Below, piece after piece: positions 16,387 through 49,618 of a stretch of 64,000 nucleotides of DNA. Location of the stretch: NCBI GenBank assembly GCA_934667095.1, contig CAKULE010000006.1, positions 1,720-65,719 on the forward strand, in the 5' to 3' direction. Both the position numbers and the translations under genes were made by a program. This stretch comes from an uncultured Oscillospiraceae bacterium. GTDB taxonomy: Bacteria; Bacillota; Clostridia; Oscillospirales; Oscillospiraceae. The notes beneath the pieces are model-generated. The model saw only the letters and a program-made list of their open reading frames with translations. It searched no databases and was not told the DNA's origin. How positions within the stretch are numbered: position 1 is the stretch's first letter; each line of letters opens with the position of its first letter.

Positions 16387-17084
16387 TGTCAGGACCGACA
16401 CCCAAAGACGAGGAGCAGGGCACGCTGGAGCGGCAGATCGAGGACACGGGCTCCGCCGCCGTGATCACCCGGGACGGCGTGATCCACACCCTGACCATCA
16501 TTGGCCAGATCGAGGGCCATCAGGCCGCGCAGGAGGGAGCCAAGACTACAAAGTACGAGCACGTCCTGCCGCTGCTCACCGCCATTGAGGAGAGCGACGA
16601 GGCCGGCGGCCTGCTCATCCTGCTGAACACCATGGGGGGCGACATCGAGGCCGGCCTGGCCATTGCGGAGATGATCGCCGGCATGCGCAAGCCCACGGTG
16701 TCGCTGGTGCTGGGTGGGGGACATTCCATCGGCGTGCCGCTGGCGGTGGCGGCCCAGACGTCCTTCATCGTGCCCTCCGGGGCCATGACCATCCATCCGG
16801 TGCGGCTCAATGGCCTTGTCATCGGCGTCAGCCAGACCTTCCGCTATTTCGAGCGCATTCAGGACCGCATCTGTGACTTTGTCACCCGGCACAGCGCCAT
16901 TTCCCGGGAAAAGTTCGAAGGCCTCATGCTCAACACCCAGGAGATGACCACGGACATGGGCAGCGTGATCTACGGCGAGCAGGCGGTGGAGCTGGGCCTC
17001 ATCGACCGCCTGGGCACCCTGGGGGACGCGCTGGACTGCCTGCACGGGCAGATGCGGGCCCGGCGGCAGGGCAGCCGGGCCTGA
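16386..17084 (+). CDS. ClpP-fold serine protease-like protein (TepA-like)
   Basis: 232 aa. IIGQIEGH...LLILLNTMGGDIEAGLAIAEMIAGMRKPTVSLVLGGGHSIGVPLAV...IHPVR resembles the ClpP/TepA family core. Confidence 0.7.
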   Translation: MSGPTPKDEEQGTLERQIEDTGSAAVITRDGVIHTLTIIGQIEGHQAAQEGAKTTKYEHVLPLLTAIEESDEAGGLLILLNTMGGDIEAGLAIAEMIAGMRKPTVSLVLGGGHSIGVPLAVAAQTSFIVPSGAMTIHPVRLNGLVIGVSQTFRYFERIQDRICDFVTRHSAISREKFEGLMLNTQEMTTDMGSVIYGEQAVELGLIDRLGTLGDALDCLHGQMRARRQGSRA

Positions 17085-17095
17085 ACCGGAGAGGC

Positions 17096-17130
17096 ATCCC
17101 CGCCGGGCCGTTCCGGCGGGGATATTTCTG
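17096..17130 (+). terminator. rho-independent terminator
   Basis: ATCCCCGCCGG-GCCGTT-CCGGCGGGGAT stem-loop followed by ATTTCT. Confidence 0.6.
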
Positions 17131-17151
17131 GCGGAAAAGCGCAAGTTGTGA

Positions 17152-17180
17152 TTGACAAGGCAGGCATCCTGTGGTAAGAT
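17152..17180 (+). promoter_or_regulatory. sigma-70-type promoter for the tRNA-Ser pair
   Basis: TTGACA (17152-17157), 17-nt spacer, TAAGAT (17175-17180) preceded by TGG (extended -10 like), about 28 nt upstream of the first tRNA. Confidence 0.55.
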
Positions 17181-17208
17181 AATCCTTGCATTTGGGCCGT
17201 TTCCATGT

Positions 17209-17295
17209 GGAGAGGTGTCCGAGTGGTTTAAGGAGCTGGTCTTGAAAACCAGTGACTCGCAAGAGCCGTGGGTTCGAATCCCACCCTCTCCGCCA
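17209..17295 (+). tRNA. tRNA-Ser (anticodon UGA)
   Basis: Manual cloverleaf: acceptor GGAGAGG/CCTCTCC, anticodon stem CTGGT/ACCAG with loop CTTGAAA, long variable arm, T-arm GTGGG-TTCGAAT-CCCAC, encoded CCA. Confidence 0.9.
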
Positions 17296-17322
17296 ATTTC
17301 ATAACTGCGCTGAATTCGACTT

Positions 17323-17414
17323 GCGGAAGTACCCAAGAGGCCGAAGGGGCTCCCCTGCTAAGGGAGTAGGCGTCTAAACAGCGCGCGAGGGTTCAAATCC
17401 CTCCTTCCGCGCCA
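17323..17414 (+). tRNA. tRNA-Ser (anticodon GCU); its 3' end is the prophage attachment core
   Basis: Acceptor GCGGAAG/CTTCCGC, anticodon stem CTCCC/GGGAG with loop CTGCTAA, long variable arm, T-arm GAGGG-TTCAAAT-CCCTC, encoded CCA. Confidence 0.9.
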
Positions 17415-17416
17415 AA
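17388..17416 (+). repeat. attL core (29-bp direct repeat)
   Basis: AGGGTTCAAATCCCTCCTTCCGCGCCAAA, identical to 49590-49618. Confidence 0.85.
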
Positions 17417-17445
17417 CCCCGGAATCGCATGATTCCGGGGTTTTG
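17417..17445 (+). terminator. terminator hairpin after the tRNA (phage-supplied side of attL)
   Basis: CCCCGGAATC-GCAT-GATTCCGGGG followed by TTTTG. Confidence 0.65.
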
Positions 17446-17545
17446 CTATCACTATGCGGGGTTGAGGGCTTTTTAGACGGTGCAGACAATGTCTGTTCAA
17501 GGAGGGTAAATGCACCTCTTATGACACAGAAACTACACAGGAAAG

Positions 17546-18598
17546 CTATTGCTGGGGCTCACCTTGGGTAGCCTCGGCAATTTTTTTGTTGATGGCTTCG
17601 GCGGTCTTCTGCCTTCGGACAGCGAGGATATGGGTGTAGGTGTCATTTGTCATGGCGGCTGTTGAGTGTCCCAGCAGGTATTGCCGGTCCTTGAGGTCGA
17701 GGCCGCTGTCCAGCAGGATGGTCGCATAGCTGTGGCGCAGTTGATGGGCAGTGCAGTGGATGCCGGTGTCTCTGGCATAGTGCTTCCAGCGCATTTCATA
17801 TTCTCCCTCACCATAGGGTGTCAGCCCTCCATCAGAGGAAAACAGGAAGGACTCCCGCCCCAGCTTGCGGGGGAGCTTGTCAGCCAGCGGATCAAGAATC
17901 GGCACCGTGCGCACTCCGCTCTCGGTTTTGGGGGCTTTGATCTTCGGTTTGCGGTTCTCGTAGTATACCGACTTTCTCACATAGATCTCCCGCTCCCGCA
18001 GGTTGATGTCCTTTCCTTGTATGGCAAGGGCCTCCCCCTTGCGCAGGCCGGTATAGAGAAGAAAAAAGGGAAGCAGCCACGTGTCTGCGTGCTCCCGGAT
18101 GCGTTGAATGTCCTCATCCGAAGCCGGCTGCCGGTATGACTTTTTCAAATCCCTTGGGATGGTAACCTCGGCACAGGGATTCAGGCTGATGTCTCCATGC
18201 TCCACGGCCCAACGGCAGATCATGTTGATCATCTGGCGCTGGGTAATCACGGTTTTCTTTGCTCGCCCCGGCGCAAACTTATCGATATAGGCCTTGATCT
18301 GTGGCGGCGTAATGCTGCGGATGGGGAGCCTGCCAAAGTGCTCCACAGCACGGTCATAGGCCGCATTATAGCTGCGCAGGGTGTTGGGGGCCAGCTTGGG
18401 AAACCGATCATTGCAGAAGTCCCGTGCCACGGCTGCAAAATCCCGGCCGCGCTGGACGTCCTCCCGATAAGCAATCATTTTGCGCTCCACCTCGGCATCA
18501 GTCGCGCCACGGAATGCTACACGCTTCCCGTTGATGACACGGATCGCCTCATGCAGACCATCGGGGCGGACGTAGTAGCGGGCCTTTCTTTTTCCCAT
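17546..18598 (-). CDS. int: tyrosine-type site-specific integrase
   Basis: RBS AGGAGGGA upstream of ATG at 18598 (MGKRKARYYVRPDG). C-terminal catalytic region HQLRHSYATILL...LLGHSTAAMTNDTYTHI. Confidence 0.9.
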   Translation of the reverse strand: MGKRKARYYVRPDGLHEAIRVINGKRVAFRGATDAEVERKMIAYREDVQRGRDFAAVARDFCNDRFPKLAPNTLRSYNAAYDRAVEHFGRLPIRSITPPQIKAYIDKFAPGRAKKTVITQRQMINMICRWAVEHGDISLNPCAEVTIPRDLKKSYRQPASDEDIQRIREHADTWLLPFFLLYTGLRKGEALAIQGKDINLREREIYVRKSVYYENRKPKIKAPKTESGVRTVPILDPLADKLPRKLGRESFLFSSDGGLTPYGEGEYEMRWKHYARDTGIHCTAHQLRHSYATILLDSGLDLKDRQYLLGHSTAAMTNDTYTHILAVRRQKTAEAINKKIAEATQGEPQQ

Positions 18599-18612
18599 GG
18601 TATCCCTCCTCC

Positions 18613-18636
18613 AAATCCGCAAACGCATGCGGATTT
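18613..18636. repeat. 24-bp palindromic motif, copy 1 (AAATCCGCA-N6-TGCGGATTT)
   Basis: AAATCCGCAAACGCATGCGGATTT, 15 nt upstream of the int start codon. Confidence 0.8.
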
Positions 18637-18670
18637 GCGCACAAATGTTCGATTCAGCGTTCTTTTTTAA

Positions 18671-18697
18671 CCTCCCCCGAAGCCGGGGGAGGTTTTT
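18671..18697 (+). terminator. GC hairpin + T5 between palindrome copies 1 and 2 (plus-sense terminator)
   Basis: CCTCCCCC-GAAGCC-GGGGGAGG followed by TTTTT. In minus sense only UU follows the hairpin. Confidence 0.45.
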
Positions 18698-18698
18698 C

Positions 18699-18722
18699 AA
18701 ATCCGCAGACGTTTGCGGATTT
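18699..18722. repeat. 24-bp palindromic motif, copy 2
   Basis: AAATCCGCAGACGTTTGCGGATTT. Same 9-bp arms as copy 1, different 6-nt spacer. Confidence 0.8.
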
Positions 18723-18730
18723 CAGAAATT

Positions 18731-19147
18731 TCAATGCTCGAGTGTCTGTCCTTCGTAGAGAAGAAGGAGGGCACGGAGCGGATCGAGAAAGTCGCCGCAG
18801 ATCTGCCGTGCGATGGCGGCGGCAGTGGCTTCATCATAAACATGCGAGGTCAAGTTGCGGGCGGTGAGGATATTGTTCCAGACCTCGCTGTCCTTGATCA
18901 CGCCGGCGGAAAAGGCTTCCTTTAGGATACCCCGAGGCGACGCAATGGAAAGCACCATGCCCTGGTCCTCCAGGTATTCCTTGACAGACTTCCAGGCCAG
19001 CTCCACGGTGAACTCGAAGCGCTGGATGAGCCCGTCCCGATACAGGGAATCCTCCGGGGCCTGCTGATAGCGGGCGACGGCCTCCTCCAGTTGGGCGAGG
19101 GCGTGCTTGTAATTACTGATCTTTTGCAGCATAGAGGACCACACCAT
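18731..19147 (-). CDS. HEPN-domain protein (HI0074-type nucleotidyltransferase substrate-binding subunit), putative toxin of an MNT/HEPN pair
   Basis: RFEFTVELAWKSVKEYL and R-x4-H motif ARNLTSHVY. Alternative start ATG 19132. Overlaps the upstream MNT gene. Confidence 0.8.
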   Translation of the reverse strand: MVWSSMLQKISNYKHALAQLEEAVARYQQAPEDSLYRDGLIQRFEFTVELAWKSVKEYLEDQGMVLSIASPRGILKEAFSAGVIKDSEVWNNILTARNLTSHVYDEATAAAIARQICGDFLDPLRALLLLYEGQTLEH

Positions 19148-19400
19148 CCTTTTCGATATTATGCAGGAACGCGGGAGCCATGTCGGTCGAGATATGGACG
19201 ATGTCCAGCTTCAGCAGGGTGGGCAGTTCCTCCGCCTCCAGCCAGAAGGCCCCGCGCTCCGCCTCCGGCATACCGTACACGGCAAGATCGACATCGCTCT
19301 GAGCGTGGAAATCGCCCCGGGCCCGGGAGCCAAAGAGCACAAGCCGCCGGGCGCCGTGCCGCTGCGCCAGCGCGGCAAGCTGATGATAGAGCCGTTCCAT
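19113..19400 (-). CDS. minimal nucleotidyltransferase (MNT), putative antitoxin partner
   Basis: Start MERLYHQLAAL at 19400. Pol-beta-type motif LFGSRARGDFHAQSDVDLAV. Confidence 0.8.
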   Translation of the reverse strand: MERLYHQLAALAQRHGARRLVLFGSRARGDFHAQSDVDLAVYGMPEAERGAFWLEAEELPTLLKLDIVHISTDMAPAFLHNIEKDGVVLYAAKDQ

Positions 19401-19413
19401 CGCCGCGCACCTC

Positions 19414-20169
19414 TCAATACTTCGCCCGGAGCTCAACCACCTTGCCGATGACTCGGACAGGGAGGCGCTCCACGTCGGCACAACTGTAAAACTGGACATC
19501 ATGCACCGGGTTGGTCGGGATCAGCGAGATCCCGTCCGGCCCGTATTTTATTTTCTTCACGGTGGCGCTGTCGCCGTTGACCAACACCACCACGGTGTCG
19601 CCGGTCTCGGCGGAGTCCTGTTTACGGACGATGACCACGTCGCCGTCCCGCATGCGGGGCTCCATGCTGTCGCCCTTGATCCGCAGGCCGAAGAACTCGC
19701 CGGTAGCGGCCAGGGCCCCATCGATCTCCTCGTAGTCCACCACGTCGGTGATGGCTTCGATGGGGATACCGGCGGCCACGTCGCCCAGTACAGGGATACG
19801 GGAAGCGGTGACTAAGTCTAATACGTGCTGGTAGCCATGAGTTAATGCGTAAATTGTGTCGTGGCTCAACGCAAGTGATTCCTGCAGTGAGGATATGCGT
19901 CGCTGAGAATCTAATAGGGCCGCAGATTGTGGGCTTCTATACTTTTCGCCGGAACCAAAAAGAAGCCAACTTGGCGATGTGTTGAGTGCGGTGCAGAGAA
20001 GGCCGATTTTCCCAGCAAAAGAATTACTTTTCCCCTTTTTCCAGTCAGTGACTGTTTGAGGAGAAACTTGCATCATATCCGCAAAATCTTTTTGCGTGAT
20101 ACCAGAATCATCTAGCAAAGTGAAAATGCGATCTCGCATGGAATCGTATTCTACGTTAAAATCGCTCAA
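19414..20169 (-). CDS. CI/LexA-like phage repressor (XRE HTH + S24 peptidase domain)
   Basis: TTG start with AGGAGG RBS. HTH ITQKDFADMMQVSPQTVTDWKKG. S24 block RIKGDSMEPRMRDGDVVIV...VKKI. Confidence 0.9.
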   Translation of the reverse strand: MSDFNVEYDSMRDRIFTLLDDSGITQKDFADMMQVSPQTVTDWKKGKSNSFAGKIGLLCTALNTSPSWLLFGSGEKYRSPQSAALLDSQRRISSLQESLALSHDTIYALTHGYQHVLDLVTASRIPVLGDVAAGIPIEAITDVVDYEEIDGALAATGEFFGLRIKGDSMEPRMRDGDVVIVRKQDSAETGDTVVVLVNGDSATVKKIKYGPDGISLIPTNPVHDVQFYSCADVERLPVRVIGKVVELRAKY

Positions 20170-20198
20170 AATTGCGACCTCCTATTTGGACAGATTCG

Positions 20199-20227
20199 CC
20201 ATAAATCAGAAAAAATCTGATTTATGG
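20199..20227. promoter_or_regulatory. operator O1: 29-bp palindrome in the cI/cro intergenic region
   Basis: CCATAAATCAGA-AAAAA-TCTGATTTATGG (12-bp arms). Confidence 0.65.
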
Positions 20228-20256
20228 TTGACAATCAGAAAAAATCTGATTAGTAT
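20228..20256 (+). promoter_or_regulatory. rightward early promoter (PR-like) overlapped by operator O2
   Basis: TTGACA (20228-20233), 17-nt spacer, TAGTAT (20251-20256). The spacer contains AATCAGAAAAAATCTGATT (20233-20251), a second copy of the O1 core. Confidence 0.6.
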
Positions 20257-20326
20257 ATACATAAAAACAAGTATAACTTAACACATCAAAAGCAATATCG
20301 CAAGACTTTTCTGTAAGGAGGTAGTT

Positions 20327-20560
20327 ATGAAAATTTTAGAGTGTCGAAAGGCAGCGAAAATGACGAGGAAAAGATTGGCACAGGATCTTGGAGTATCGAG
20401 TACTGCTGTTTATCTATGGGAAGTAGGAAAGGCAACTCCTCGGCTTCAAAATTTGATTGAGATGTCAAGGATTTTGGGATGTACAGTTGGGGATCTAATT
20501 GGCGAAGAAACTGAACCATACACCGAGGAGGCCCGGGCCGTCCGGCCCACAGCGTCATAA
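20327..20560 (+). CDS. Cro-like XRE-family HTH regulator
   Basis: RBS AAGGAGG upstream. MTRKRLAQDLGVSSTAVYLWEVGKATPRLQNLIEMSRILGCTVGDLI. Divergent from the repressor. Confidence 0.85.
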   Translation: MKILECRKAAKMTRKRLAQDLGVSSTAVYLWEVGKATPRLQNLIEMSRILGCTVGDLIGEETEPYTEEARAVRPTAS

Positions 20561-20584
20561 TACACCGGCAGGAGGTGATTGACC

Positions 20585-21034
20585 ATGCAGAGAGATTGCA
20601 GAAATATCTATCAGACCGCCCGGAAAATCGCGGGCGTCACCCAGGAGCGGGCCGCCGAGATGCTGGGTCTGTCCGTGCGCTCCCTGGCGGACTACGAGTG
20701 CGGGGTGCGGGTGCCGCCCAACGAGGTGGTGGACCAGATGGTCACGTGCTACTGCTGTCATCAGTTAGCAGTGTGGCACATCCGGGCCACGGTGGAGAGC
20801 GCCCGCAGTATTTTGCCGGAGGTCGCCCAGCTGCGCCTGCCGGAGGCGGTGCTCTGCCTTGTAGACACCATCTACGACTTTGCCGACGACAAGCTCGACC
20901 GCCAGCTGATCGATATGGCCCGGGACGGCGTGATCGACGAAACGGAGCGGCCCCAGTTCCGGCGGATCGTGGGGAAGCTGAACAACATTGTGGCGGCGGC
21001 TGTGGCCATCAGCTGCCAGAGCGCGGAGAGATAG
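20585..21034 (+). CDS. XRE-family HTH protein with C-terminal helical domain
   Basis: RBS GGAGG 20571-20575, ATG 20585. GVTQERAAEMLGLSVRSLADYECGVRVPPNEVV. Confidence 0.7.
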   Translation: MQRDCRNIYQTARKIAGVTQERAAEMLGLSVRSLADYECGVRVPPNEVVDQMVTCYCCHQLAVWHIRATVESARSILPEVAQLRLPEAVLCLVDTIYDFADDKLDRQLIDMARDGVIDETERPQFRRIVGKLNNIVAAAVAISCQSAER

Positions 21035-21044
21035 GAGGACGACC

Positions 21045-21251
21045 ATGTCACGAGAAAAGGAACTGTTCCGGGACAACCTTGTGCGGCTGGACGAGGCGTT
21101 TCCCGGACGGGAGCTTATCAAATTCGCGGACGCGGTGGACTACTGCGGGATTCCGTCGCGCACCGCCAGAGAGGACAAAAAATTTCCGAAGCAGTTTGTG
21201 GGGAAGAATCTGTATGTCAGCAAGACGAAGCTCGCCAGCTATTTGGCATAA
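21045..21251 (+). CDS. small phage DNA-binding-like protein (possible Xis/regulator)
   Basis: RBS AGGAGG before ATG 21045. 68 aa, basic C-terminus. No family assignable by eye. Confidence 0.5.
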   Translation: MSREKELFRDNLVRLDEAFPGRELIKFADAVDYCGIPSRTAREDKKFPKQFVGKNLYVSKTKLASYLA

Positions 21252-21364
21252 AAAAGCCCCCGGCGAATGCGGGTACATTCACCAGGGGCTCGGCAGTACA
21301 AGTACTACCATGAGAACAAATTTAGTTTACCATATTCGGCGGAAAATTGCAAGGGGGTGAGGGC

Positions 21365-22219
21365 GTGGCGCAGATCAGAATCGAAAAATCCCAGGGTTTC
21401 ACGGCGCTGGCCAACGAGGTCATCCAGAATCCGAAGCTGTCCTTAAAGGCGAAGGGGCTGTTGGCCTATATGCTGTCCGTCCCGGCAGACTGGGACTATT
21501 CCATATCCGGCCTGTCCGCCAAGTGCAGGGAGGGCAAGGCCGCCATCCGCAGCGCCATCGGGGAGCTGATGGAGGCCGGCCACGTGACCCGCAGCGCCGT
21601 CCGCAAGGCCACCGGCACCATGGACGGCTACGAGTACGTGGTCTACGAACTGCCAAGACCGTCGTGCGAAAATCGGACGACGGCAGAGGAGGAGCCACCG
21701 TCGTTCGGTTTTCCGACGTCGGATTTTCCGTCGTCGGAAAATCGAACGGAACAAAATAAGAACTTAACAAAGAAGAACTTAACAGATACCCCCTATAGTC
21801 CCCCAGCGGGGGACGGGCCTGCCGAAGATCTACATACTCCGGAGCCGCCGAAGCAGGACGCCCCAGAGCCGCCGGAGCCCAAGCCCCGGAAGGGGCGACT
21901 GAAGGACTACAAGCCGGAGTGGTTCAATGCCTTCTGGGCCATCTATCCCCGGAAGGACGGGAAACAGGCGGCCTATAAGTCGTGGTGCAAACTCAAGCCA
22001 GACCGGCCCACCTGCCGGGCCATGGCGGCGGGGCTGGAGCGGGCCCGAACCTCCCGGCAGTGGACGAAGGACAACGGGGAGTTCATTCCCCACGCCTCCA
22101 CATGGATCAACGGCCGTATGTGGGAGGACGAGGGTGTGGACCTGTCGCTGCTGCCGGCGGCGGCTGATTCCGGCGGCCGGTGCTGGGCCCCGGACCCGGA
22201 GGTGATCCCCGATGGATGA
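21365..22219 (+). CDS. phage replication initiator / replisome organizer (N-terminal winged-helix, low-complexity linker, conserved C-terminal domain)
   Basis: GFTALANEVIQNPKLSLKAKGLLAYMLSVPADWDYSISGL... is a typical phage replication wHTH. C-terminal YPRKDGKQAAYKSWCKL...ASTWINGRMWEDE. Lies directly upstream of DnaB. Start GTG 21365 (or TTG 21347). Confidence 0.7.
   Translation: MAQIRIEKSQGFTALANEVIQNPKLSLKAKGLLAYMLSVPADWDYSISGLSAKCREGKAAIRSAIGELMEAGHVTRSAVRKATGTMDGYEYVVYELPRPSCENRTTAEEEPPSFGFPTSDFPSSENRTEQNKNLTKKNLTDTPYSPPAGDGPAEDLHTPEPPKQDAPEPPEPKPRKGRLKDYKPEWFNAFWAIYPRKDGKQAAYKSWCKLKPDRPTCRAMAAGLERARTSRQWTKDNGEFIPHASTWINGRMWEDEGVDLSLLPAAADSGGRCWAPDPEVIPDG
21660..21790. repeat. iteron-like inverted/direct repeats inside the organizer gene (candidate phage ori)
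   Basis: Four CGGAAAAYC-type units in alternating orientation (21666-21683, 21706-21722, 21720-21737, 21735-21749), plus AAGAACTTAACA twice (21758-21769, 21773-21784) in an AT-rich stretch. Confidence 0.5.
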
Positions 22220-23615
22220 GGAACTGCGCCTTACCGGGGCCGTGGAGGCCCAGCAGTCTGTCATCGGCTCCATGCTCATCGACGACCGCTGTGTGGGCGT
22301 GGTGATGAGCAGTCTGACAGCAGAGGACTTTACCGACGGTCCCTGCCGGACGGCCTTCCGGGCCATCAAAAAGCAGTTCGTGGCGGACAGGCCGGTGGAC
22401 CCCATCGCCCTGCTGGACGCCGTGGGCGGTGGGGATCGCTATGTCCAGTGGATCAAAGAGGTCATGGAGATCACCCCCACCGCCGCCAATGTGGAGTATT
22501 ACGCCGGGATCGTCCGCAAGTCGGCGGCCCTGTGTCGGCTTCGGGAATTGGCGGGCAATGTGGTCCAGTGCGGAGATTTGGAAACGGCCTCGGCTCTGGT
22601 GCGGGAGATGTCGGCCGCCACCTCGGCGGCCAGCCGTGTGTCCCGCATGACGGCCCGGGAGCTGGCGGAGGACTTCCTACGCCGGTTGACCGACCAGAAA
22701 AAGCCGGAGTACCTCCCCTGGGGGATACCGGCGGCGGACCAGAAGGTCTACGCCGAACTGGGGGACCTGTGCCTGCTGGGCGGGTACGCCTCGGCGGGCA
22801 AGACCCTGTTGTCCCTCCAGATGGCCCTGGCCCAGGCCAAGCGGTACCGGGTGGGTTACTACACCCTGGAGACCCGGCCGGAGAAGATGGCCGACCGCAT
22901 GTTCGCCCACCTGGCCAAGCTGCCCATGACGGCTATCAAGCGCCGGGAGATCACGGAGGGCGATCTGCGCCGGGCGGCGGACGCAGCGGATCTGTTTACC
23001 AAGACCTGCCCCATTGACTTCGTCCGGGCGGCGGGCCTGTCCGTGGAGGACATCGCCGCCGACGCCATCGCCCACCGCTACCAGGTGATCTACGTGGACT
23101 ATCTCCAGCTCATCGAGGTGCCCGGAATCCGGGCAGGGGACCGCTATGGAGCCGTGACGGCGGTGAGCCGGGGGCTGAAGCTGTTCGCCCAGTCCCACAA
23201 CGTGGCGGTGGTGGCGCTGGCCCAGCTCTCCCGGCCCCAGCCAGCGGGCGGGAAGAATGGGCAGGCCCTCATCCCGCCGTCCATGCACTCTTTCCGGGAG
23301 TCCGGCCAGATCGAGCAGGACGCCGACGTGGCCTTTCTGCTGTGGGCAGAGGATGACAACGACAACCGTTCTCGCCGGAGTTTCAAGCTGGGCAAGAACA
23401 AGGAGGGCGAGAAGTTTCTCCGCCATCTGGATTTTGATGGCTCCACCCAGACTATGGCAGAGGTGGAGGAATCGGAGCGCAGCGCCGTGGCCGCTCACTA
23501 TTCCGAGGTGGGCAAAGCGGTGAAGCAACGCAACCGAGCGGCTGCACAGGTTCCGGGCTTTACAGAACTGCCGGAGGACAGCGACTGTCCCTTCCCGGCG
23601 AGGGCGCCCTCATGA
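22212..23615 (+). CDS. DnaB-type replicative DNA helicase
   Basis: 467 aa. N-terminal AQQSVIGSMLID...DFTD...AIKKQF pattern. Walker A GGYASAGKTLLSLQMAL. RecA-like C-terminal domain FRESGQIEQDADV. Confidence 0.9.
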   Translation: MDEELRLTGAVEAQQSVIGSMLIDDRCVGVVMSSLTAEDFTDGPCRTAFRAIKKQFVADRPVDPIALLDAVGGGDRYVQWIKEVMEITPTAANVEYYAGIVRKSAALCRLRELAGNVVQCGDLETASALVREMSAATSAASRVSRMTARELAEDFLRRLTDQKKPEYLPWGIPAADQKVYAELGDLCLLGGYASAGKTLLSLQMALAQAKRYRVGYYTLETRPEKMADRMFAHLAKLPMTAIKRREITEGDLRRAADAADLFTKTCPIDFVRAAGLSVEDIAADAIAHRYQVIYVDYLQLIEVPGIRAGDRYGAVTAVSRGLKLFAQSHNVAVVALAQLSRPQPAGGKNGQALIPPSMHSFRESGQIEQDADVAFLLWAEDDNDNRSRRSFKLGKNKEGEKFLRHLDFDGSTQTMAEVEESERSAVAAHYSEVGKAVKQRNRAAAQVPGFTELPEDSDCPFPARAPS

Positions 23616-23800
23616 CGGCCCGGCAGATGGCCCTGGTGCGGGGCGAGGCCCTGCGGCACGAGCGGCTGAGCCGCCTATCGGAGGAACCATCCGTCCGGAC
23701 CGGACACTTGGAAACGGCGGCGGCTCTGCTGGCCGCCCTGGACGCCGCCCAGTGCGGGAGGAGAAAGCGAAAGAGGAGGGCACACCATGCGAGACATTGA
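23612..23800 (+). CDS. hypothetical phage protein
   Basis: ATGA overlap with the dnaB stop. 62 aa, Arg-rich tail. Confidence 0.4.
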   Translation: MTARQMALVRGEALRHERLSRLSEEPSVRTGHLETAAALLAALDAAQCGRRKRKRRAHHARH

Positions 23801-23990
23801 GCTGGGTATGCCGTACACGTTCGTCCCGGCCCCCTTTATCGGGGAGCGGGACGTGACCCGGGACGGGGAGACCGTCCGCCGGGCGGTTACCGGCCGGGTC
23901 TGCTATATCAACGAGCCCCACAGGTATTTCACCGTGAGCTTTACCCTCGGCAGAGGGTATCCCATGAAGGAATCCTTCAAAATTTTCTGA
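23787..23990 (+). CDS. hypothetical phage protein
   Basis: 67-aa ORF with GAGGAGGG RBS upstream, in an operon-like position. Confidence 0.5.
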   Translation: MRDIELGMPYTFVPAPFIGERDVTRDGETVRRAVTGRVCYINEPHRYFTVSFTLGRGYPMKESFKIF

Positions 23991-24003
23991 GGAGGTACAT
24001 ACC

Positions 24004-24789
24004 ATGAGAACATTTGCAGTTGTCAACATGAAGGGCGGGGTGGGCAAGACTACCACTGCCATCAATCTGGCGTGTATTCTGGCCACCGACTACCAGCAGC
24101 GGGTACTGCTGGTGGACGCCGATGCCCAGTCCAACGCCACCCGCTGCCTGCTGGATGCCGATGAGACTCGCTCCGGGCTGGCCGCCCTGCTCACCGGCCT
24201 TGCCAGCTATGACGAGCTGATCGAGCCTGTGGCGGAGATCGAGGGGTTGGATATGCTCCCAGCCACCAATGAGCTGTGGCGGGTAGACTTCGCCTGCGTC
24301 ACCGGGGACGGCTCCGGAGTGTTCCGTGCCCTGCGGGGTCTGCGGGACGCCGTGGAGGAGGACGACAGCTATGACGTGATGGTCATTGACTGCCCGCCCA
24401 GCTTCTCCGCCGCCTGCGTGTCCGCCATCGTGGCCAGCGACAGCATCATCATCCCAGTGCTGCCCGACGCCTTCTCCGCCGCCGGCATGGCGGACCTGGT
24501 GGAGCAGATCGACAGCGCCCGGCGGTATCAGCCCTCCATCCGGGTGTCCGGAATCCTCATCAACCAGTGGCACCGGGCCGACGTGGTGGAGGACGCCACC
24601 GAGTACCTCCGGGCAGCCTCCCCCGTGCCCGTGTTCGACACGGTGATCCGCCGGACGGATCGGGTGCTGGAATCCACTTGGGCCCAGCAGCCCGTGATGA
24701 TCTGGAGCCCCCGGTCCTCCGCCGCCCGGGACTACCGGGCCTGGGTCAGGGAACTGGTGACCAAGGAGGCGGTGCTGGGTGGCCGGTAA
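24004..24789 (+). CDS. parA: ParA/Soj-family partition ATPase
   Basis: Deviant Walker A VNMKGGVGKTTTAINLA. VLLVDADAQSNAT. VIDCPPS. RBS GAGGAGG upstream. Confidence 0.9.
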   Translation: MRTFAVVNMKGGVGKTTTAINLACILATDYQQRVLLVDADAQSNATRCLLDADETRSGLAALLTGLASYDELIEPVAEIEGLDMLPATNELWRVDFACVTGDGSGVFRALRGLRDAVEEDDSYDVMVIDCPPSFSAACVSAIVASDSIIIPVLPDAFSAAGMADLVEQIDSARRYQPSIRVSGILINQWHRADVVEDATEYLRAASPVPVFDTVIRRTDRVLESTWAQQPVMIWSPRSSAARDYRAWVRELVTKEAVLGGR

Positions 24790-25735
24790 GTTTGACTTGG
24801 GGGCCATCCTTGCCGGGCAGGAGGTCAAGACCCCACCCAAGCCCCGGGACATCGCCGCCATCACGGCGGAGATCATCGAGAACAAGCGTCGTGGCGGAGA
24901 GGCCGTCCTCACCATCGGCCGGGCCCTCAACGAGGCCAAGGCCCTGCTGAGCCACGGGGAGTGGCTGCCGTGGCTGACAGAGCAGGCAGAGCTGTCGGAG
25001 CGGGCAGCCCAGAACTTCATGCGGCTGGCCCGGGAGTGGTCAAATCCGCAAACGCTTGCGGATTTGGGCAGCAGCAAGGCCCTCGCCCTGCTGGCCCTGC
25101 CGGAGGAGGAGCGGGAGCAGTTTGTAGAGGCCCATCCGGTGGCTGACATGAGCACCCGGGAGCTGAAGCAGGCCATCGCGGACCGTGAGGCGGCGCTGGC
25201 CGAGAAGGCTGCCGCCAACAAGGAGCGGGACAAGCTGGCGGAGCGGGTGGCCGCCCTCCAGTCGGCCCAGGAGCTGGCCGCCGATCTCACCGCCCAAAAG
25301 GACGCCGAGATCGTCCAGCTTCGGGCGGAGCTGAAGGCCACCCAGGAGCGGCCGGTGGACGTGGCCGTCATGGAGGTGGACCAGACCGCTCTGGATGCCG
25401 CCCGGGCCGAAGCGGCCGCCGCAGCGCAGGCCAAGTTGGACAAGGCCCTGGATGGCAAGAAACAGGCGGAGGAGAAGCGCAAGGCACTGGAGGAGGAATT
25501 GACGGCTCTCCGGGCGCAGCTGGCGGACTCTGCCCGGGAGGACAAGCGGGCGCAGATCGCGGCGGACAAGGACCTTGCGGTATTTGAGGTGACCTTCGCT
25601 CAAACCCAGGAGGACGTGAATCGGCTCCACGGTCTGCTCATGAAGGTGCGCAGCCGAGGGGATGAGACCTTGGCGGAGAAGCTCCGCCGGGCCCTGCTGG
25701 CCCTGGCGGACAGCGTGAGGGGGTGCGCAGGATGA
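24779..25735 (+). CDS. DUF3102-like protein with long coiled coil, candidate ParB-like/centromere-binding partner of ParA
   Basis: GTG start after AAGGAGG. IGRALNEAKALLSHGEWLPWLTEQAELSERAAQNFMRLARE matches my recollection of DUF3102. The Ala/Glu/Lys-rich middle is predicted coiled coil. Contains palindrome copy 3. Confidence 0.7.
   Translation: MAGKFDLGAILAGQEVKTPPKPRDIAAITAEIIENKRRGGEAVLTIGRALNEAKALLSHGEWLPWLTEQAELSERAAQNFMRLAREWSNPQTLADLGSSKALALLALPEEEREQFVEAHPVADMSTRELKQAIADREAALAEKAAANKERDKLAERVAALQSAQELAADLTAQKDAEIVQLRAELKATQERPVDVAVMEVDQTALDAARAEAAAAAQAKLDKALDGKKQAEEKRKALEEELTALRAQLADSAREDKRAQIAADKDLAVFEVTFAQTQEDVNRLHGLLMKVRSRGDETLAEKLRRALLALADSVRGCAG
25042..25065. repeat. 24-bp palindromic motif, copy 3 (inside the DUF3102-like gene)
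   Basis: AAATCCGCAAACGCTTGCGGATTT; encodes SNPQTLADL. Confidence 0.8.
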
Positions 25736-26067
25736 GCGTACTGGCCGAAGTGATCGCCGCCATCGAGGCCCAGCAGCCGAAGGAACGCTCCGCCGTCTGG
25801 ATGGTGGGGGAGCAGATGAAGGACATCTGCCGGGCCGACCCGGCCGCCGCCGAGCTCCTGCTGGCGGATCTGACCCACAACCCGGACATGACGCTGGCGG
25901 CCGCCGAGAAAAAGATCGCCGCCCGGGCCAAGGCTAACAAGGTGGGCAACTGCGGCTGCGTCACCCCGGCGGAGGCGGAGGAGATCCTCCGGGAGTTCTT
26001 CGGCCTTGGAGCCCCGGGCACTCCGGCGGAACGCCCCAAGGTCCTGGACCTGGCGGACTTTCTGTGA
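25732..26067 (+). CDS. PcfK-like / AcrIIA9-family-like small protein (candidate anti-CRISPR)
   Basis: ATGA overlap with the upstream stop. ...TLAAAEKKIAARAKANKVGNCGCVTPAEAEEILREFFGLG resembles the conserved C-terminal block I recall for the AcrIIA9/PcfK-like family. Followed by a PcfJ-like gene. Confidence 0.55.
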   Translation: MSVLAEVIAAIEAQQPKERSAVWMVGEQMKDICRADPAAAELLLADLTHNPDMTLAAAEKKIAARAKANKVGNCGCVTPAEAEEILREFFGLGAPGTPAERPKVLDLADFL

Positions 26068-26079
26068 GGGGGCGGGCTG

Positions 26080-27915
26080 ATGGATACCGAGTGGAAAGCT
26101 CTGGCCGGCCGGCTGCCGACGCAGCCCTGCGGCGACTTGATCCAGGACATCATGAGCGCCGTGTACGACGGTGAGGAGCTGGGCGAGAATCTGATTCTCT
26201 ACCACCGGGAATCGGTGGAGCTGGCGGACGAAGGCCTGATGCTTCAGACCATGGCCCCGGAGGACTGGGCCCGCTATGATGCCTCCCGCCGCCGGCGCTG
26301 GGGCGCCCGGTGTACCTGCTCCTTCTGCGGCGAAGACTTCCTCGCCGGGTATGTCCGGCGGGAGGGTCTGACGGGGATCGCCCTCTTTGCAGACGATGAC
26401 GGCAACACCCAGCCCGGCTTTGCTCTGGCGGAGGAGGGTGGGGCAGAGTACTTTGACGGAGAGCCCGTCCAGTGCCCCAGCTGCCGGAATGAGGGCATGC
26501 TGACCCGCCGGAGCGAGCTGCGGCGGGGGAGGACACACCAGGTCATGCAGGCGGAAACGGTAGACGTGGACGGGTACACGGCGGTGATGTTCTGGCTGGT
26601 GTCCCGCTATCAAGACGATGCCGGCGTGGACCGGACCCTCTGCCTGCCCAGCGCCGCCCTGCTGGTGGACAAGGCGGGCAGGCTGCGGCGCTTCCGGGCC
26701 GTCCGGCAGGGCGGCGAGGTAACGGACGTGGAGTGGCTGCCCTGCGCCCGCACCCGGGACCCCATGCAGGTGGCCTATTACGACCATGGCTCAGTCAACT
26801 GCCGGAAGGTGGGAGGCTGGACCTGCGTTTACGGTCCGGAGCTGGCCGGGCACACCGGAGAGAAAACCGCTCTGGACAAGTACATCGGCGCGGGCGGGCA
26901 CTGGCCCGGGGCATACCTCCACGTGTGGCAGAAGCACCCGCAGGTGGAGAACCTCATACGGCAGGGGTTTGCCGGTGCCGTCCAGCAGACCATTGATGAG
27001 TACCTGGACCGCGTTGCCTACTTCGCCGACCTGCGGGATGCCCCGGCCATCGACTGGGTGGACTGGACTCAGCGCCAGCCCCACAAAATGCTGGGCATGA
27101 ACCGGGAGGCATTCCGGGCCATCCGGGAGAGGAGCAGATGGGGCGGACAGGACGCGGCCTGCTGGGCCCGATACCGGGCGGCTCTGCCCGGGGCGGATGC
27201 CCTGGAATATGACCGCTGCCGTCAGGTGCTGGGCCGCGCGGAGGTGGAAAAGCTGCTGGATGCCCTGGCCGAGGGCTGGCCCGACCTGCGCCCCGCCCGG
27301 GTGACCCGCTATCTGGAGTGCCACGGCCCGGCGGCGGACGGCGTCCAGATGCTGCTGGACTACCGCCGGATGCTGCGGGACGCGGGATTGGCGGAGACGG
27401 AGGAGACCCTCTGGCCCCGGGATCTGGCCGCCGCCCACGACCGGGTGGCCCAGATGTGGACCGGGCGGAGCTCCGCAGAGTATTCCTTGGGTTTCACGTC
27501 GGTGTATTTGTCGCTCCGAGACTTGGAGTGGACGGACGGCGACCTGTGCGTCGTGGTGCCGAGGTCGGAGCAGGATCTGATCGAGGAGGGCCGTGTGCTG
27601 CGGCACTGCGTGGGCACTTATGGACGGCCCCATTGCTCTGGTAAGCCCATCTTCTTTATCCGCCACCGCCGCCGGCCGGAGCGCAGCTACTACACCCTCA
27701 ATATCGACCTCACGGGCAAGCTGCCCCGGGAGATCCAGCTGCACGGCTACGGCAACGAGCGCCACGGCCCCGCAAAGCAGTACAGCCATTCCATCCCGCA
27801 GACGGTCCGGGACTTCTGCGACCGCTGGCAGCGGGAGGTGCTCCTGCCGTGGTTCATGGCCCGGCGGGAGTGGAAGAGTAAGCCCGTCGGCCAGAGCAGA
27901 CGCCGGGCGGGGTAA
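26080..27915 (+). CDS. PcfJ-like domain protein with N-terminal Zn-ribbon-like cysteines
   Basis: 611 aa. C-terminal LIEEGRVLRHCVGTYGRPHCSGKPIFFIRHRRRPERSYYTLNIDL matches my recollection of the PcfJ-like core. CTCSFCG...CPSCRNEG near the N-terminus. Confidence 0.6.
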   Translation: MDTEWKALAGRLPTQPCGDLIQDIMSAVYDGEELGENLILYHRESVELADEGLMLQTMAPEDWARYDASRRRRWGARCTCSFCGEDFLAGYVRREGLTGIALFADDDGNTQPGFALAEEGGAEYFDGEPVQCPSCRNEGMLTRRSELRRGRTHQVMQAETVDVDGYTAVMFWLVSRYQDDAGVDRTLCLPSAALLVDKAGRLRRFRAVRQGGEVTDVEWLPCARTRDPMQVAYYDHGSVNCRKVGGWTCVYGPELAGHTGEKTALDKYIGAGGHWPGAYLHVWQKHPQVENLIRQGFAGAVQQTIDEYLDRVAYFADLRDAPAIDWVDWTQRQPHKMLGMNREAFRAIRERSRWGGQDAACWARYRAALPGADALEYDRCRQVLGRAEVEKLLDALAEGWPDLRPARVTRYLECHGPAADGVQMLLDYRRMLRDAGLAETEETLWPRDLAAAHDRVAQMWTGRSSAEYSLGFTSVYLSLRDLEWTDGDLCVVVPRSEQDLIEEGRVLRHCVGTYGRPHCSGKPIFFIRHRRRPERSYYTLNIDLTGKLPREIQLHGYGNERHGPAKQYSHSIPQTVRDFCDRWQREVLLPWFMARREWKSKPVGQSRRRAG

Positions 27916-27947
27916 AAAGAAACTGCCGGGGGCAAAGCCCCCGGCAG
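27912..27947 (-). terminator. terminator hairpin downstream of hicB (may act bidirectionally)
   Basis: CTGCCGGGGG-CAAAG-CCCCCGGCAG (27923-27947). In minus sense it is followed by TTTCTTTTT. Confidence 0.6.
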
Positions 27948-27958
27948 CGGGTGGTCAG

Positions 27959-28366
27959 TCAGTTGGCGGCACCGTGCAGATAGCCGTTCAGCGCGTCGGT
28001 CAGTACCTGGGAGAAGTTCACGTGGGCCTCCTCCGCTTCCCGGTTGAGCCAGGCGGGGATGGTGAGGGTCTTTTTCACTACGCGGTTGTTGACCCGGTCT
28101 CGGACGGAGGGCATAAACACCTCCACCATGGTCAAGACGCCGCCCTCCTCGGGGTGCAGATCCTCGATAGGGGAAGGGACGGGGATCGGGTCGCCGTCTT
28201 GCTCCATGCCGTACAGGTGCAGGCCCATGGCCTCCTTGGCGTTGCGGAATGCCTCCTCGGTGGTGGAAGCGCAGGGCAGGCAGCCCGGCAGGTCGGGGAA
28301 CTCAATCGAGATCCCATCCGGGTCATAGTAGAAGATGGCGGGGTAGCTGTAGTAGTTCGGAAGCAT
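27959..28366 (-). CDS. hicB: HicB-family antitoxin
   Basis: YPAIFYYDPDGISIEFPDLPGCLPCASTTEEAFRNAKEAMGLHL is the HicB N-terminal fold. C-terminal ribbon-helix-helix-like KKTLTIPAWLNREAE. Confidence 0.85.
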   Translation of the reverse strand: MLPNYYSYPAIFYYDPDGISIEFPDLPGCLPCASTTEEAFRNAKEAMGLHLYGMEQDGDPIPVPSPIEDLHPEEGGVLTMVEVFMPSVRDRVNNRVVKKTLTIPAWLNREAEEAHVNFSQVLTDALNGYLHGAAN

Positions 28367-28402
28367 ATAGAAAACTCCTTTCGGTTGGGCGAGGGGCGGG
28401 GC

Positions 28403-28600
28403 TTACTCGAATTTCAGCCCCGCCTGGTCCCCAATGGATTTCAGTGTTCGCTTTGGGATGTCTTTGACTGGATGTGTGACTGTTACCTTCCCGGGTTTTG
28501 AGGGGTGCTTGAACTGGTGATGATCTCCGGTACAGTGGACCTCGTACCAGCCATCTTCGGCCAGGATCTTGAGCACCTCTCGGGACGAATAGCTTTTCAC
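28403..28600 (-). CDS. hicA: HicA-family mRNA interferase toxin
   Basis: 65 aa. SSREVLKILAEDGWYEVHCTGDHHQFKHPSKPGKVTVTHP is a typical HicA. Confidence 0.85.
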   Translation of the reverse strand: MKSYSSREVLKILAEDGWYEVHCTGDHHQFKHPSKPGKVTVTHPVKDIPKRTLKSIGDQAGLKFE

Positions 28601-28672
28601 ATAACCACCTCTCTTAACTGTCTATATTATAGCACGTATAAACACACGTGTCAATGATTTTCGGAGGAATTT

Positions 28673-28819
28673 ATGAAAAAATTAAAGCCTGGCGACCCGT
28701 GTCCCTGTTGCGGGAAGCCGATCAAAACTCGAGACCCGGAGCGGCTGGAGTTTCTCTCCCTCATGGCGGAGTGGCTGGAGCGACACCCGGAACTGGAGGA
28801 GGCAAGATCATGCGGATGA
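28673..28819 (+). CDS. small Cys-rich (PCPCCGKP) phage protein
   Basis: GGAGG 28663-28667, ATG 28673; MKKLKPGDPCPCCGKPIKTRDPERLEFL...; 48 aa. Overlaps the next small ORF by 10 nt. Confidence 0.5.
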   Translation: MKKLKPGDPCPCCGKPIKTRDPERLEFLSLMAEWLERHPELEEARSCG

Positions 28820-28968
28820 CGTGGGAAGCCCCGGACGGCAGCTGGGGCCTGGACGGCGTGGAGCTCTCGACCCTGCCACCCAAGGTGTACGCCGCCCTCC
28901 ACCGGCTGATGGAATTTGAGCGGGAGTACGGTGAGCCAGTTAGAATTGTTCCCGCAGAGGAGGTATGA
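28810..28968 (+). CDS. hypothetical small phage protein
   Basis: ATG 28810; MRMTWEAPDGSWGLDGVELSTLPPKVYAALHRLMEFE...; 52 aa. The upstream part of the 28648 ORF in this frame lacks an RBS and overlaps a better gene. Confidence 0.45.
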   Translation: MRMTWEAPDGSWGLDGVELSTLPPKVYAALHRLMEFEREYGEPVRIVPAEEV

Positions 28969-28970
28969 GC

Positions 28971-49589: not shown

Positions 49590-49618
49590 AGGGTTCAAAT
49601 CCCTCCTTCCGCGCCAAA
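49590..49618 (+). repeat. attR core (orphan 3' end of tRNA-Ser(GCU))
   Basis: Identical 29-mer to 17388-17416. No upstream tRNA body. Confidence 0.85.

Follow-up and report, generated by a model that had tools for sequence, protein, structure and literature searches.

In ParABS partition systems, ParB (Spo0J) binds parS, a nearly invariant 16-bp site with the consensus tGTTTCACGTGAAACa, and N-terminal peptides of ParB stimulate ParA; partition-type binders activate ParA through flexible, basic N-terminal peptides. In type Ib systems (ParF/ParG and delta/omega), the binders are ribbon-helix-helix proteins that occupy arrays of short repeats near a promoter. RacA of Bacillus subtilis, which joins a helix-turn-helix head to a long coiled coil, binds GC-rich palindromic sites (ram) and tethers DNA to a cellular location, and the stoperators of mycobacteriophages, asymmetric sites of 13 bp, occur in dozens of copies and are bound by the immunity repressor. 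KfrA of the IncP-1 and IncU plasmids (RK2, R751 and RA3) has a globular N-terminal DNA-binding head and a long alpha-helical coiled-coil tail (PMC7821693); it is reported to recognise a specific operator, to regulate its own expression and to contact IncC/KorB (PMC7783346, PMC7821693). Here we analyse a 64-kb stretch of DNA from an uncultured Oscillospiraceae bacterium (contig CAKULE010000006.1), hereafter the window, in which a prophage carries a ParA gene, an overlapping gene of the DUF3102 family and three copies of a 24-bp palindrome, AAATCCGCA-N6-TGCGGATTT. An earlier note on this DNA had named the palindrome a candidate centromere or operator of the ParA/DUF3102-like pair. Our results suggest that the palindrome is probably the cognate duplex site of the DUF3102 protein, and that in this prophage the two probably belong to a ParA-coupled, centromere-like module.

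As in ParABS, a Walker-type ParA gene lies immediately upstream of the gene for the proposed palindrome binder, with overlapping stop and start codons; a cognate site lies within the binder's own gene, as one parS does in spo0J/parB, and more copies are found elsewhere on the replicon. The basic and hydrophobic, ParA-associated tail of DUF3102 resembles the ParA-stimulating peptides of ParB. However, Pfam, PDB profile and Foldseek searches of DUF3102 revealed neither a ParB/Srx (CTPase) domain nor a significant ParB match in sequence or fold, its 24-bp site is unlike the 16-bp parS, and it has a long coiled coil, a highly diversified specificity and many homologues without ParA. The small ParA (261 amino acids) without an N-terminal DNA-binding domain, the non-ParB partner and a flexible N-terminal tail that is a candidate ATPase-activating element recall type Ib systems, but DUF3102 is helical with a coiled coil and has a single long palindrome in its own gene; its AlphaFold2 (AF2) model is all-helical without an N-terminal strand, and Pfam gave no ribbon-helix-helix hit. 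KfrA is similar in its head-and-tail build and in its occurrence on mobile replicons that also bear or adjoin ParA/ParB-type segregation genes, whereas DUF3102 has no hit to Pfam KfrA_N (PF11740) at E <= 0.01, its site is intragenic where that of KfrA is, in the papers cited above, a repetitive autoregulation operator, and it belongs to Firmicutes phages and plasmids rather than to Proteobacterial plasmids. RacA, likened here by description only, has many chromosomal sites and does not share an operon with ParA. Stoperators resemble the present arrangement in that several copies of one site lie in short intergenic gaps by the terminators of a temperate phage, but here the site is a 24-bp palindrome in one to three copies and the gene lies in an early/replication module.

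The palindrome in the DUF3102 gene is conserved as DNA

A pattern search that allowed up to three mismatches found exactly three copies of the palindrome in the window, all of them within the prophage (Table 1), against a chance expectation of 0.03; none of 100 shuffled sequences reached three copies. Neither variant-arm palindromes of the same build nor isolated 9-mer half-sites occurred elsewhere in the window. The three copies match exactly the coordinates and spacers given in the earlier note, and the search of the window added none of the further copies that the note had thought possible. A dispersed element of the repetitive extragenic palindromic (REP) type, which the note had named as one case that would overturn its proposal, or of the miniature inverted-repeat transposable element (MITE) type does not fit three copies per 64 kb that are confined to the prophage. 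Each copy is a near-perfect 24-bp palindrome with the consensus AAATCCGCAAACGTTTGCGGATTT and CG at its centre, and in copies 1 and 3 the symmetry reaches the C...G flanks.

When bacterial genomes were scanned for the exact pattern, the matches listed were mostly unrelated AT-rich terminators of the form AAAAAATCCGCA-loop-TGCGGATTTTTT, together with a MITE-like repeat. The look-alike terminators in unrelated genomes have the same arms but non-CG spacers. Because most matches are unrelated, the arms alone are not diagnostic, whereas the CG-centred spacer and the gene context are. A dispersed repeat, '...agaaaattttaatcaAAATCCGCATCATCATGCGGATTTtttccttataataag', shares the 9-nt arms but has non-CG spacers and different flanks; it recurs on many contigs of single metagenome-assembled genomes of Clostridia (for example, JAFSCX01), and appears to be MITE- or terminator-like and unrelated to DUF3102.

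Copy 3 lies in frame within a genuine DUF3102 gene (PF11300) beside ParA, as had been noted, and encodes S-N-P-Q-T-L-A-D-L (DUF3102 residues 88-96). An exact-pattern scan of IMG/VR returned 69 loci, about 39 of which carry the motif inside a DUF3102 homologue (40-67% identity) at the same protein position. To remove ascertainment bias, we assembled an unbiased set of 80 loci using peptide anchors outside the site (HGEWLPW and ERxAQNFM). In 79 of these 80 loci, a 9-N6-9 palindrome of the form AAAT.....N6.....ATTT occupies the same codons. The arms covary over at least 15 types, with both sides changing together between lineages (CCGCA/TGCGG, CGGCA/TGCCG, CCGAC/GTCGG, CCGTC/GACGG, CGGCC/GGCCG, CCCGC/GCGGG, CCGAA/TTCGG and others), and the encoded peptide shifts with the arm type (NPQ..ADL, NRQ..ADL, NPT..SDL, NPS..TDL, NRP..ADL and NPA..RDL). 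In the CGGCA type, for instance, a non-synonymous CCG-to-CGG change (P to R) is paired with a synonymous GCG-to-GCC change in the opposite arm. Codon choice within the site is nearly fixed: Asn is AAT in 83 of 85 cases, Asp is GAT in all 78 and Leu is TTG in all 82, compared with 45%, 38% and 20%, respectively, in the rest of the gene.

The same DNA can be read differently. A clade with an AQQY helix (L297-L315 in our IMG/VR set) keeps the arms AAATCCGCA/TGCGGATTT around a 5-nt spacer, and its left arm stands in another frame (ggc AAA TCC GCA ..., or G-K-S-A), giving the peptide G-K-S-A-T-V-A-D-L; in this clade, conservation of the DNA appears to override the reading frame. The site extends to more distant relatives, being AAATTCCACGACGTCGTGGAATTT in Bacillus phages 250 and IEBH (DUF3102 identity of 34%) and AAATACGACGACGTCGTCGTATTT in the Levilactobacillus brevis plasmid NZ_CP113255.1 (about 31%), and an 8/9 version of the palindrome is present in a Cytobacillus plasmid. 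These data show that selection preserves the DNA and not the peptide. Additional palindromes are far less common, with 17 distinct extra sites among 184 DUF3102-bearing loci. The intragenic copy is the one that is conserved and apparently essential; those upstream of the integrase gene (int) are optional additions, found in a minority of relatives.

Two helix residues covary with bases of the half-site

We compared the arm types with the residues of a candidate reading helix in 101 non-redundant DUF3102 homologues. Seven distinct arm types, all ending in CA, occur with Asn at residue 79, and eight distinct arm types, all ending in C, occur with Arg (p of about 1/6435 for this split, counting one observation per arm type). 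Arg at residue 78 goes with G at base 6 in 10 of 10 CGGCx sites. On a neighbour-joining tree built with residues 78 and 79 and the site masked, changes at residue 78 share a branch with a change at base 6 in 9 of 10 cases, where 0.7 would be expected. For residue 79, the counts are 11 of 16 cases with base 8 and 11 of 15 with base 9 (about 1.8 expected); the two residues track none of the remaining bases. As a control, we examined about 100 variable columns and found that, outside the residues encoded by the site, only 78 and 79 reach comparable mutual information (0.62 for column 78 with base 6 and 0.89 for column 79 with base 9; the next best columns give 0.32 and 0.28). R75 and E74 partly track base 5. 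Among 150 representatives of the library clustered at 50% identity, N79 occurs with Gln or His at residue 91 in 47 of 48 proteins, and R79 with Thr, Ser, Ala or Pro in 38 of 38.

For residues 1-145, AF2 predicts an all-helical structure (pLDDT, a per-residue confidence score, of 77; predicted template modelling score, pTM, of 0.46). In this model, helices 62-68 and 74-87 would form a helix-turn-helix-like pair, with S73-E-R-A-A-Q78-N79-F-M-R82 as the reading helix. Positions 75, 78 and 79, the second, fifth and sixth of the modelled helix, share one of its faces and map in order to bases 5, 6 and 8-9, and Asn-adenine and Arg-guanine are classical amino-acid/base preferences. This pattern suggests that DUF3102 binds the palindrome as a dimer. 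As the window protein is of the QN type and all three window sites are of the CCGCA type, it is predicted to bind all three.

A ParA-associated tail marks one subclass of DUF3102

In the window, the ParA stop and the DUF3102 start overlap by 11 nt, which fits a ParA-DUF3102 pair, and a Walker-type ParA in one operon with the centromere-binding protein is one of the marks of type I partition. Across the family, ParA adjoins DUF3102 in 31 of 85 non-redundant loci. A tail motif, [DN][ILVT]xxhh, is present at the N terminus of 29 of the 31 ParA-linked proteins but in only 2 of the 54 ParA-less ones (Fisher p = 4.5e-18, a value that ignores phylogeny). The ParA-linked N termini include MSKPDLGRIIAQ, MGKPDLGALIAR, MSRFDITQAF and MLDLSGVLAP, and that of the window protein is MAGKFDLGAILAG, with the motif written more narrowly as [KR]-x-[DN]-[LI]-x-x-h-h; ParA-less proteins have acidic or Cys-rich N-terminal extensions in place of the tail. 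Together with the N-terminal activation peptides known from other binders, this association supports a working ParA-DUF3102 pair in the prophage. The Cys-rich extension (..ERCPLQAECE[KR]KC..GREL[ED]C.YY..) is frequent in ParA-less proteins, as in L023, L035, L095, L122 and L298 of IMG/VR, and may be a zinc-binding domain that takes the place of the ParA-linked tail.

We propose that DUF3102 binds as a two-fold symmetric dimer through its helix-turn-helix-like head, with helix 74-87 reading the half-site (R75 at base 5, Q78 at base 6 and N79 at bases 8-9) and the long coiled coil providing dimerization or oligomerization. With the site in the binder's own gene, two codons after the segment that encodes the helix, each element would carry a matched protein-site pair. 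Such pairs would have diversified to many specificities, as expected for an identity tag without cross-talk between related elements. Given the translational coupling to ParA and the ParA-type tail, the pair is most likely a type-I-like segregation or positioning module, in which DUF3102 would be the centromere-binding protein and the three sites with identical arms would be centromere-like anchors. The substance of the original proposal of a centromere or operator for the ParA/DUF3102 pair is therefore supported by the DNA-level selection, the helix-base covariation and the N-terminal tail; it needs amending in that ParA is not an obligatory partner and that the conserved copy is the intragenic one.

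Several observations weigh against this explanation. Many DUF3102 homologues have no ParA. Bacillus phage 250 (56.5 kb) contains exactly one site, which is intragenic (L331:5198, record position 40682), and has separately annotated 'partition' (gp32) and 'replication' proteins, with no ParA beside DUF3102. The L. brevis plasmid NZ_CP113255.1 (66 kb) also contains exactly one site, again intragenic (L333:2498), and carries PrgP/PrgO. Since these two complete replicons have partition genes of their own, partition cannot be the universal role of the family, and it is not obvious why an integrating prophage would need a centromere. Foldseek against the PDB and PDB profile searches gave nothing significant for DUF3102 (the best match was Spo0J, 1vz0, with E = 2.8 and a TM score of 0.32), and the pTM of the AF2 model is only 0.46. 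A hairpin would accommodate the shortening of the spacer from 6 to 5 nt more readily than a rigid dimer would. Intergenic copies, moreover, have an arm type unlike that of the resident intragenic site in about half of the related lineages; the mismatched copies are mostly CCGTC or CCGAC (L004, L055, L084, L085, L093, L115 and L128 of IMG/VR). Possible explanations are module exchange between phages, tolerance of changes in the inner bases and a second protein that reads the sites. The other half do match, but nearly all with the commonest type, CCGCA, so the comparison gives no clear signal. The window is a concordant case, as both extra copies are of exactly the resident arm type.

A further point on the same side is that the covarying bases are all non-synonymous, so that residues 78 and 79 could in principle covary with residues 90, 91 and 94 through contacts within the protein. 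Three points make this the less likely reading: in an antiparallel helix hairpin, the partners of residue 90 would be residues 86-87 rather than 75 or 78; the amino-acid chemistry agrees with the reading of bases; and the frame-shifted KSA members differ in the left-arm peptide while sharing the A-D-L peptide of the right arm. In this clade the arms are identical wherever the DNA was examined, and residue 79 is Asn, Asp, Gln or Val but never Arg.

Taken over the family, the core role of DUF3102 needs only a single intragenic site and is not tied to ParA. DUF3102 co-occurs more constantly with orf114 and a PcfJ-like gene, in either order, in phages and plasmids. By BLASTP, orf114 is remotely related to a plasmid protein (L334:2098-2463) that PGAP names 'Cas9 inhibitor AcrIIA9 family' (E = 2e-8); AcrIIA9 carries a Pfam PcfK domain (PMC6739104), and a Pfam search with orf114 itself gave no hit. 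The company of these genes hints that the DUF3102-orf114-PcfJ trio is an establishment or anti-defence module. Anti-CRISPR-associated (Aca) regulators are helix-turn-helix proteins, encoded beside an acr gene, that repress the acr promoter through an inverted repeat; here the neighbour orf114, as a remote AcrIIA9/PcfK relative, is a candidate at most for the acr gene, and the palindrome is not at a promoter.

Intergenic copies and a possible transcriptional roadblock

In relatives, the extra palindromes are almost always in the int/lysogeny/cargo region, 6-9 kb upstream of DUF3102. Nearly all lie either directly after a GC hairpin and T-run ('...ggcttttttcAAATCC...GGATTT') or upstream of a leftward gene such as int or MNT, 5-25 nt from its ribosome-binding site. 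The composite 'hairpin-TTTTTC-AAATCC...GGATTT' recurs in L004, L055, L128, L076, L064, L115, L015 and L097. The intergenic palindromes flank cassettes of accessory (moron) genes; in L076, they stand on either side of HepT/MNT.

A toxin-like, hydrophobic peptide of 28 residues (MVTYSDL...KKK) is the product of one unit of about 388 bp, which has a palindrome at each junction; it occurs singly and in tandem (L060:3950-4850, where it is tandem, and L055:200-720). It carries a consensus TTGACA-17-TATACT promoter on the opposite strand and a terminator at its end, and looks like a type I toxin-antitoxin-like cassette.

The main alternative, which we regard as possible but unlikely, shares the binding step with the proposed centromere-like module and differs in outcome alone: DUF3102 or another factor on the palindromes would stop RNA polymerase, making the site an operator, roadblock or insulator. 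The intragenic site would then impose negative autoregulation on DUF3102 and polarity on orf114 and the PcfJ gene, and the copies that flank the terminator would keep read-through transcription out of int and the toxin-antitoxin cargo, an arrangement comparable to mycobacteriophage stoperators or to KfrA autoregulation. Such an arrangement would account for the position of the intergenic copies, after terminator T-runs or before leftward ribosome-binding sites and flanking moron cassettes, and for the sufficiency of a single intragenic site in complete replicons that already have partition genes. In Bacillus phage 250, DUF3102 is the first gene of the early operon and lies beside a divergent regulator, and autoregulation is described for KfrA-type head-plus-coiled-coil proteins in PMC7821693. 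The roadblock model is harder to reconcile with the lack of any promoter-like site overlapping the window copies (the promoter scan found no sigma-70-like site at copies 1 or 2) and with the place of the putative operator, about 265 bp into a coding region, which would be unusual. In addition, a clade with the gene order orf114-PcfJ-DUF3102 would allow control of DUF3102 alone, the intergenic arm types often mismatch the resident protein type, and the ParA-specific N-terminal tail is left unexplained. Centromere-like and roadblock roles are not mutually exclusive.

Duplex site or nucleic-acid structure

A nucleic-acid structure is a different kind of alternative. The palindrome could fold into a hairpin as RNA, or be extruded from DNA as a hairpin or cruciform, acting in mRNA processing or stability, in translational control of int or as a single-strand signal, and its arms would covary to maintain pairing. 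Compensatory arm changes alone fit both the duplex and the hairpin model, and the 5-nt spacer is tolerated in one clade. A 49-nt RNA around copy 3 has a folding energy of -19.9 kcal/mol. As RNA, copies 1 and 2 can pair with each other around the terminator hairpin (18605-18730 on both strands; -59 to -65 kcal/mol, z of about -8), although two identical palindromes do so automatically. On the minus strand, the 3' side of this copy 1/copy 2 stem ends right beside the int ribosome-binding site, so an RNA-level effect on int expression is possible.

The sites themselves argue for a duplex. The outer AAAT/ATTT is invariant in all 42 distinct 24-mers, and the spacer is self-complementary, with at least two of its three central pairs formed in 33 of the 42 and CG as the central pair in 33; neither property is required of a loop. 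Mismatches between the arms are mostly A.G, with few G.U wobbles. The symmetry through the centre and the non-wobble mismatches favour a two-fold symmetric duplex site. Moreover, the 3' flanks of the window palindromes (GCGCAC, CAGAAA and GGGCAG) contain no T-run, a terminator scan called none of the three copies, and a search of positions 17000-26500 against Rfam 15 gave no match overlapping them at E <= 1, with only two tRNAs exceeding the gathering score. A structure also does not predict that two residues of an upstream helix track specific arm bases. We therefore consider this explanation improbable. The earlier preference for a dimeric site over an RNA hairpin is thus favoured on grounds of symmetry and mismatch type, whereas its own argument, identical arms around a variable spacer, is weak, since arms in the family vary with compensation.

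If anything, still less credence attaches to the idea that the palindromes are recombination or module-boundary sites, at which accessory cassettes and integration modules pass between related phages by an unknown (attC-like) recombinase or by homology-driven shuffling. Intergenic copies do flank cassettes, as in the single and tandem 388-bp units of L060 and L055, with a palindrome per junction, and around HepT/MNT in L076, and their arm types are often unlike that of the resident gene, as expected after module exchange. However, the universal copy is intragenic and is single in complete replicons, no dedicated recombinase co-occurs with the sites, the integrases differ widely between loci (21-44% identity), and neither the helix-base covariation nor the forced codon choice would be explained.

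That the palindrome has no function as DNA, the intragenic copy being a by-product of the peptide N-P-Q-x-x-A-D-L, which is conserved in many homologues, and the intergenic copies being chance occurrences or relics, is hardly credible, because synonymous codons are fixed against the gene's own usage, peptide variants always alter both arms together, the KSA clade keeps the DNA and not the peptide, and identical arms recur in non-coding DNA, both of the window and of relatives; for the window, the chance expectation is 0.03.

Three other candidates were rejected: an origin of replication (one GC-rich palindrome stands alone, iterons and an AT-rich element are lacking, and the initiator gene is separate), a pac site for the small terminase (the same gene and site occur on plasmids) and a restriction site (the central hexamers vary).

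Architecture and reach of the DUF3102 family

The DUF3102 protein of the window consists of an N-terminal tail, a helical, helix-turn-helix-like head (residues 23-136; the AF2 model is helical over residues 23-145), an Ala/Glu/Lys-rich coiled coil and a conserved C-terminal segment, whose conserved columns are seen in the homologue alignment. A Pfam scan at E <= 0.01 gave only DUF3102, GM130_C and Fez1, and the C-terminal 170 residues match only coiled-coil-type proteins. Sequence and profile searches of the PDB returned coiled-coil noise and no solved relative, and Foldseek against BFVD returned only other uncharacterised DUF3102 proteins. A Foldseek match to Orf4 of Leptospira phage LE1 was weak (E = 0.1). 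NCBIfam and PADLOC were uninformative for DUF3102, orf114 and the PcfJ-like protein, and the literature that we searched describes no function for DUF3102/PF11300. The N-terminal domain of the window protein matched 9,683 clusters at 50% identity; the family comprises about 10^4 sequence clusters, carried by phages and plasmids of Firmicutes and of other hosts.

More tentatively, and with somewhat less confidence than we place in the site assignment, we suggest that DUF3102 may represent a previously unrecognised class of 'self-marking' DNA-binding adaptors, which would read a 23-24-bp palindrome in their own coding sequence through a residue-base code and couple it to modular effectors. If this were true, the placement of the site would let the nascent protein load in cis, and at least 15 specificities would be written in a code of residue 78 with base 6 and residue 79 with bases 8-9. 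The effectors would be a ParA-activating tail here, and Cys-rich N-terminal domains or a PcfK/AcrIIA9-like-PcfJ module elsewhere, and the marked site would serve as an element-identity tag for segregation, anchoring or insulation. For a large family, the analysis provides a predicted DNA target, predicted reading residues, a testable two-residue specificity code and, for one subclass, a ParA partner. It also shows how, in nature, a predicted protein-binding palindrome can constrain the coding sequence that contains it, with amino acids, codons and even the reading frame bent to DNA symmetry. Matched protein-site pairs could be used as orthogonal DNA tags or stabilization cassettes for gut Clostridia, and they help to annotate the maintenance modules of prophages and plasmids.

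Organization of the prophage

Two tRNA-Ser genes precede the prophage, the second ending at 17414. The 3' end of tRNA-Ser(gct) is repeated directly, with 29 of 29 identical positions, at the right end of the element, which places a prophage of approximately 32.2 kb in the tRNA gene. From this position of attL, copies 1 and 2 lie about 1.2 kb from attL, in keeping with the earlier description of them as close to the attP side of the excised genome; the GC hairpin and T5 that they were said to bracket upstream of int was also recovered by the terminator scan (Table 1).

Table 1. Features of the prophage; positions are those of the window
Feature	Position	Strand	Remarks
attL core	17388-17416	+	Final 29 nt of the second tRNA, tRNA-Ser(gct)
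Tyrosine integrase (int)	17546-18598	-	Pfam Phage_integrase, E = 8e-20; ATG at 18598
Palindrome copy 1	18613-18636		Spacer AACGCA; intergenic; abuts the int ribosome-binding site (- strand)
GC-rich hairpin and T5, terminator-like	18672-18697	+	Position as in the terminator scan, with the whole feature at 18670-18697; bracketed by copies 1 and 2
Palindrome copy 2	18699-18722		Spacer GACGTT; intergenic; directly after the hairpin T-run, 9 nt from the HepT-like stop codon
HepT-like/MNT-type nucleotidyltransferase toxin-antitoxin cassette	18731-19502	-	Pfam NTase_sub_bind and Polbeta; copy 2 at its 3' end
ParA-type Walker ATPase, 261 aa	24004-24789	+	KGGVGKT; no N-terminal helix-turn-helix; Pfam AAA_31, CbiA and ParA; PHROG 164 (ParA-like partition protein), E = 1e-57
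DUF3102 gene, 318 aa	24779-25735	+	Pfam PF11300, E = 8e-27; PHROG 15609 (function unknown); predicted palindrome binder
N-terminal tail MAGKFDLGAILAG...	24779-24844	+	DUF3102 codons 1-22; candidate ParA-interaction peptide
Predicted recognition helix SERAAQNFMRLAREW	24998-25039	+	DUF3102 codons 74-87; Q78/N79 at 25010-25015
Palindrome copy 3	25042-25065		Spacer AACGCT; intragenic, DUF3102 codons 88-96; family-wide conserved site
orf114	25723-26067	+	Conserved neighbour of DUF3102; BLASTP E = 2e-8 to a PGAP-named AcrIIA9 (PcfK) family protein
PcfJ-like protein, 611 aa	26080-27915	+	Pfam PF14284, E = 3.6e-22; conserved neighbour of DUF3102 and orf114
attR core	49590-49618	+	29/29 identical to attL; right prophage end

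From the left end, a leftward block on the minus strand contains int, the HepT-like/MNT pair and a CI-like S24 repressor; it is followed by a block on the plus strand with Cro-like and helix-turn-helix regulators, a replication initiator, DnaB, ParA, DUF3102, orf114 and the PcfJ-like gene. The window ParA scores under the cutoff of NCBIfam ParA_partition. A megablast search of window positions 17400-29000 against GenBank phages gave no match, and in a close relative, P0003, the contig starts at the repressor gene and is thus uninformative on the int-proximal copies. A second toxin-antitoxin cargo pair, HicB/HicA, lies at 27959-28600 on the minus strand (Pfam E = 3e-14 and 8e-20).

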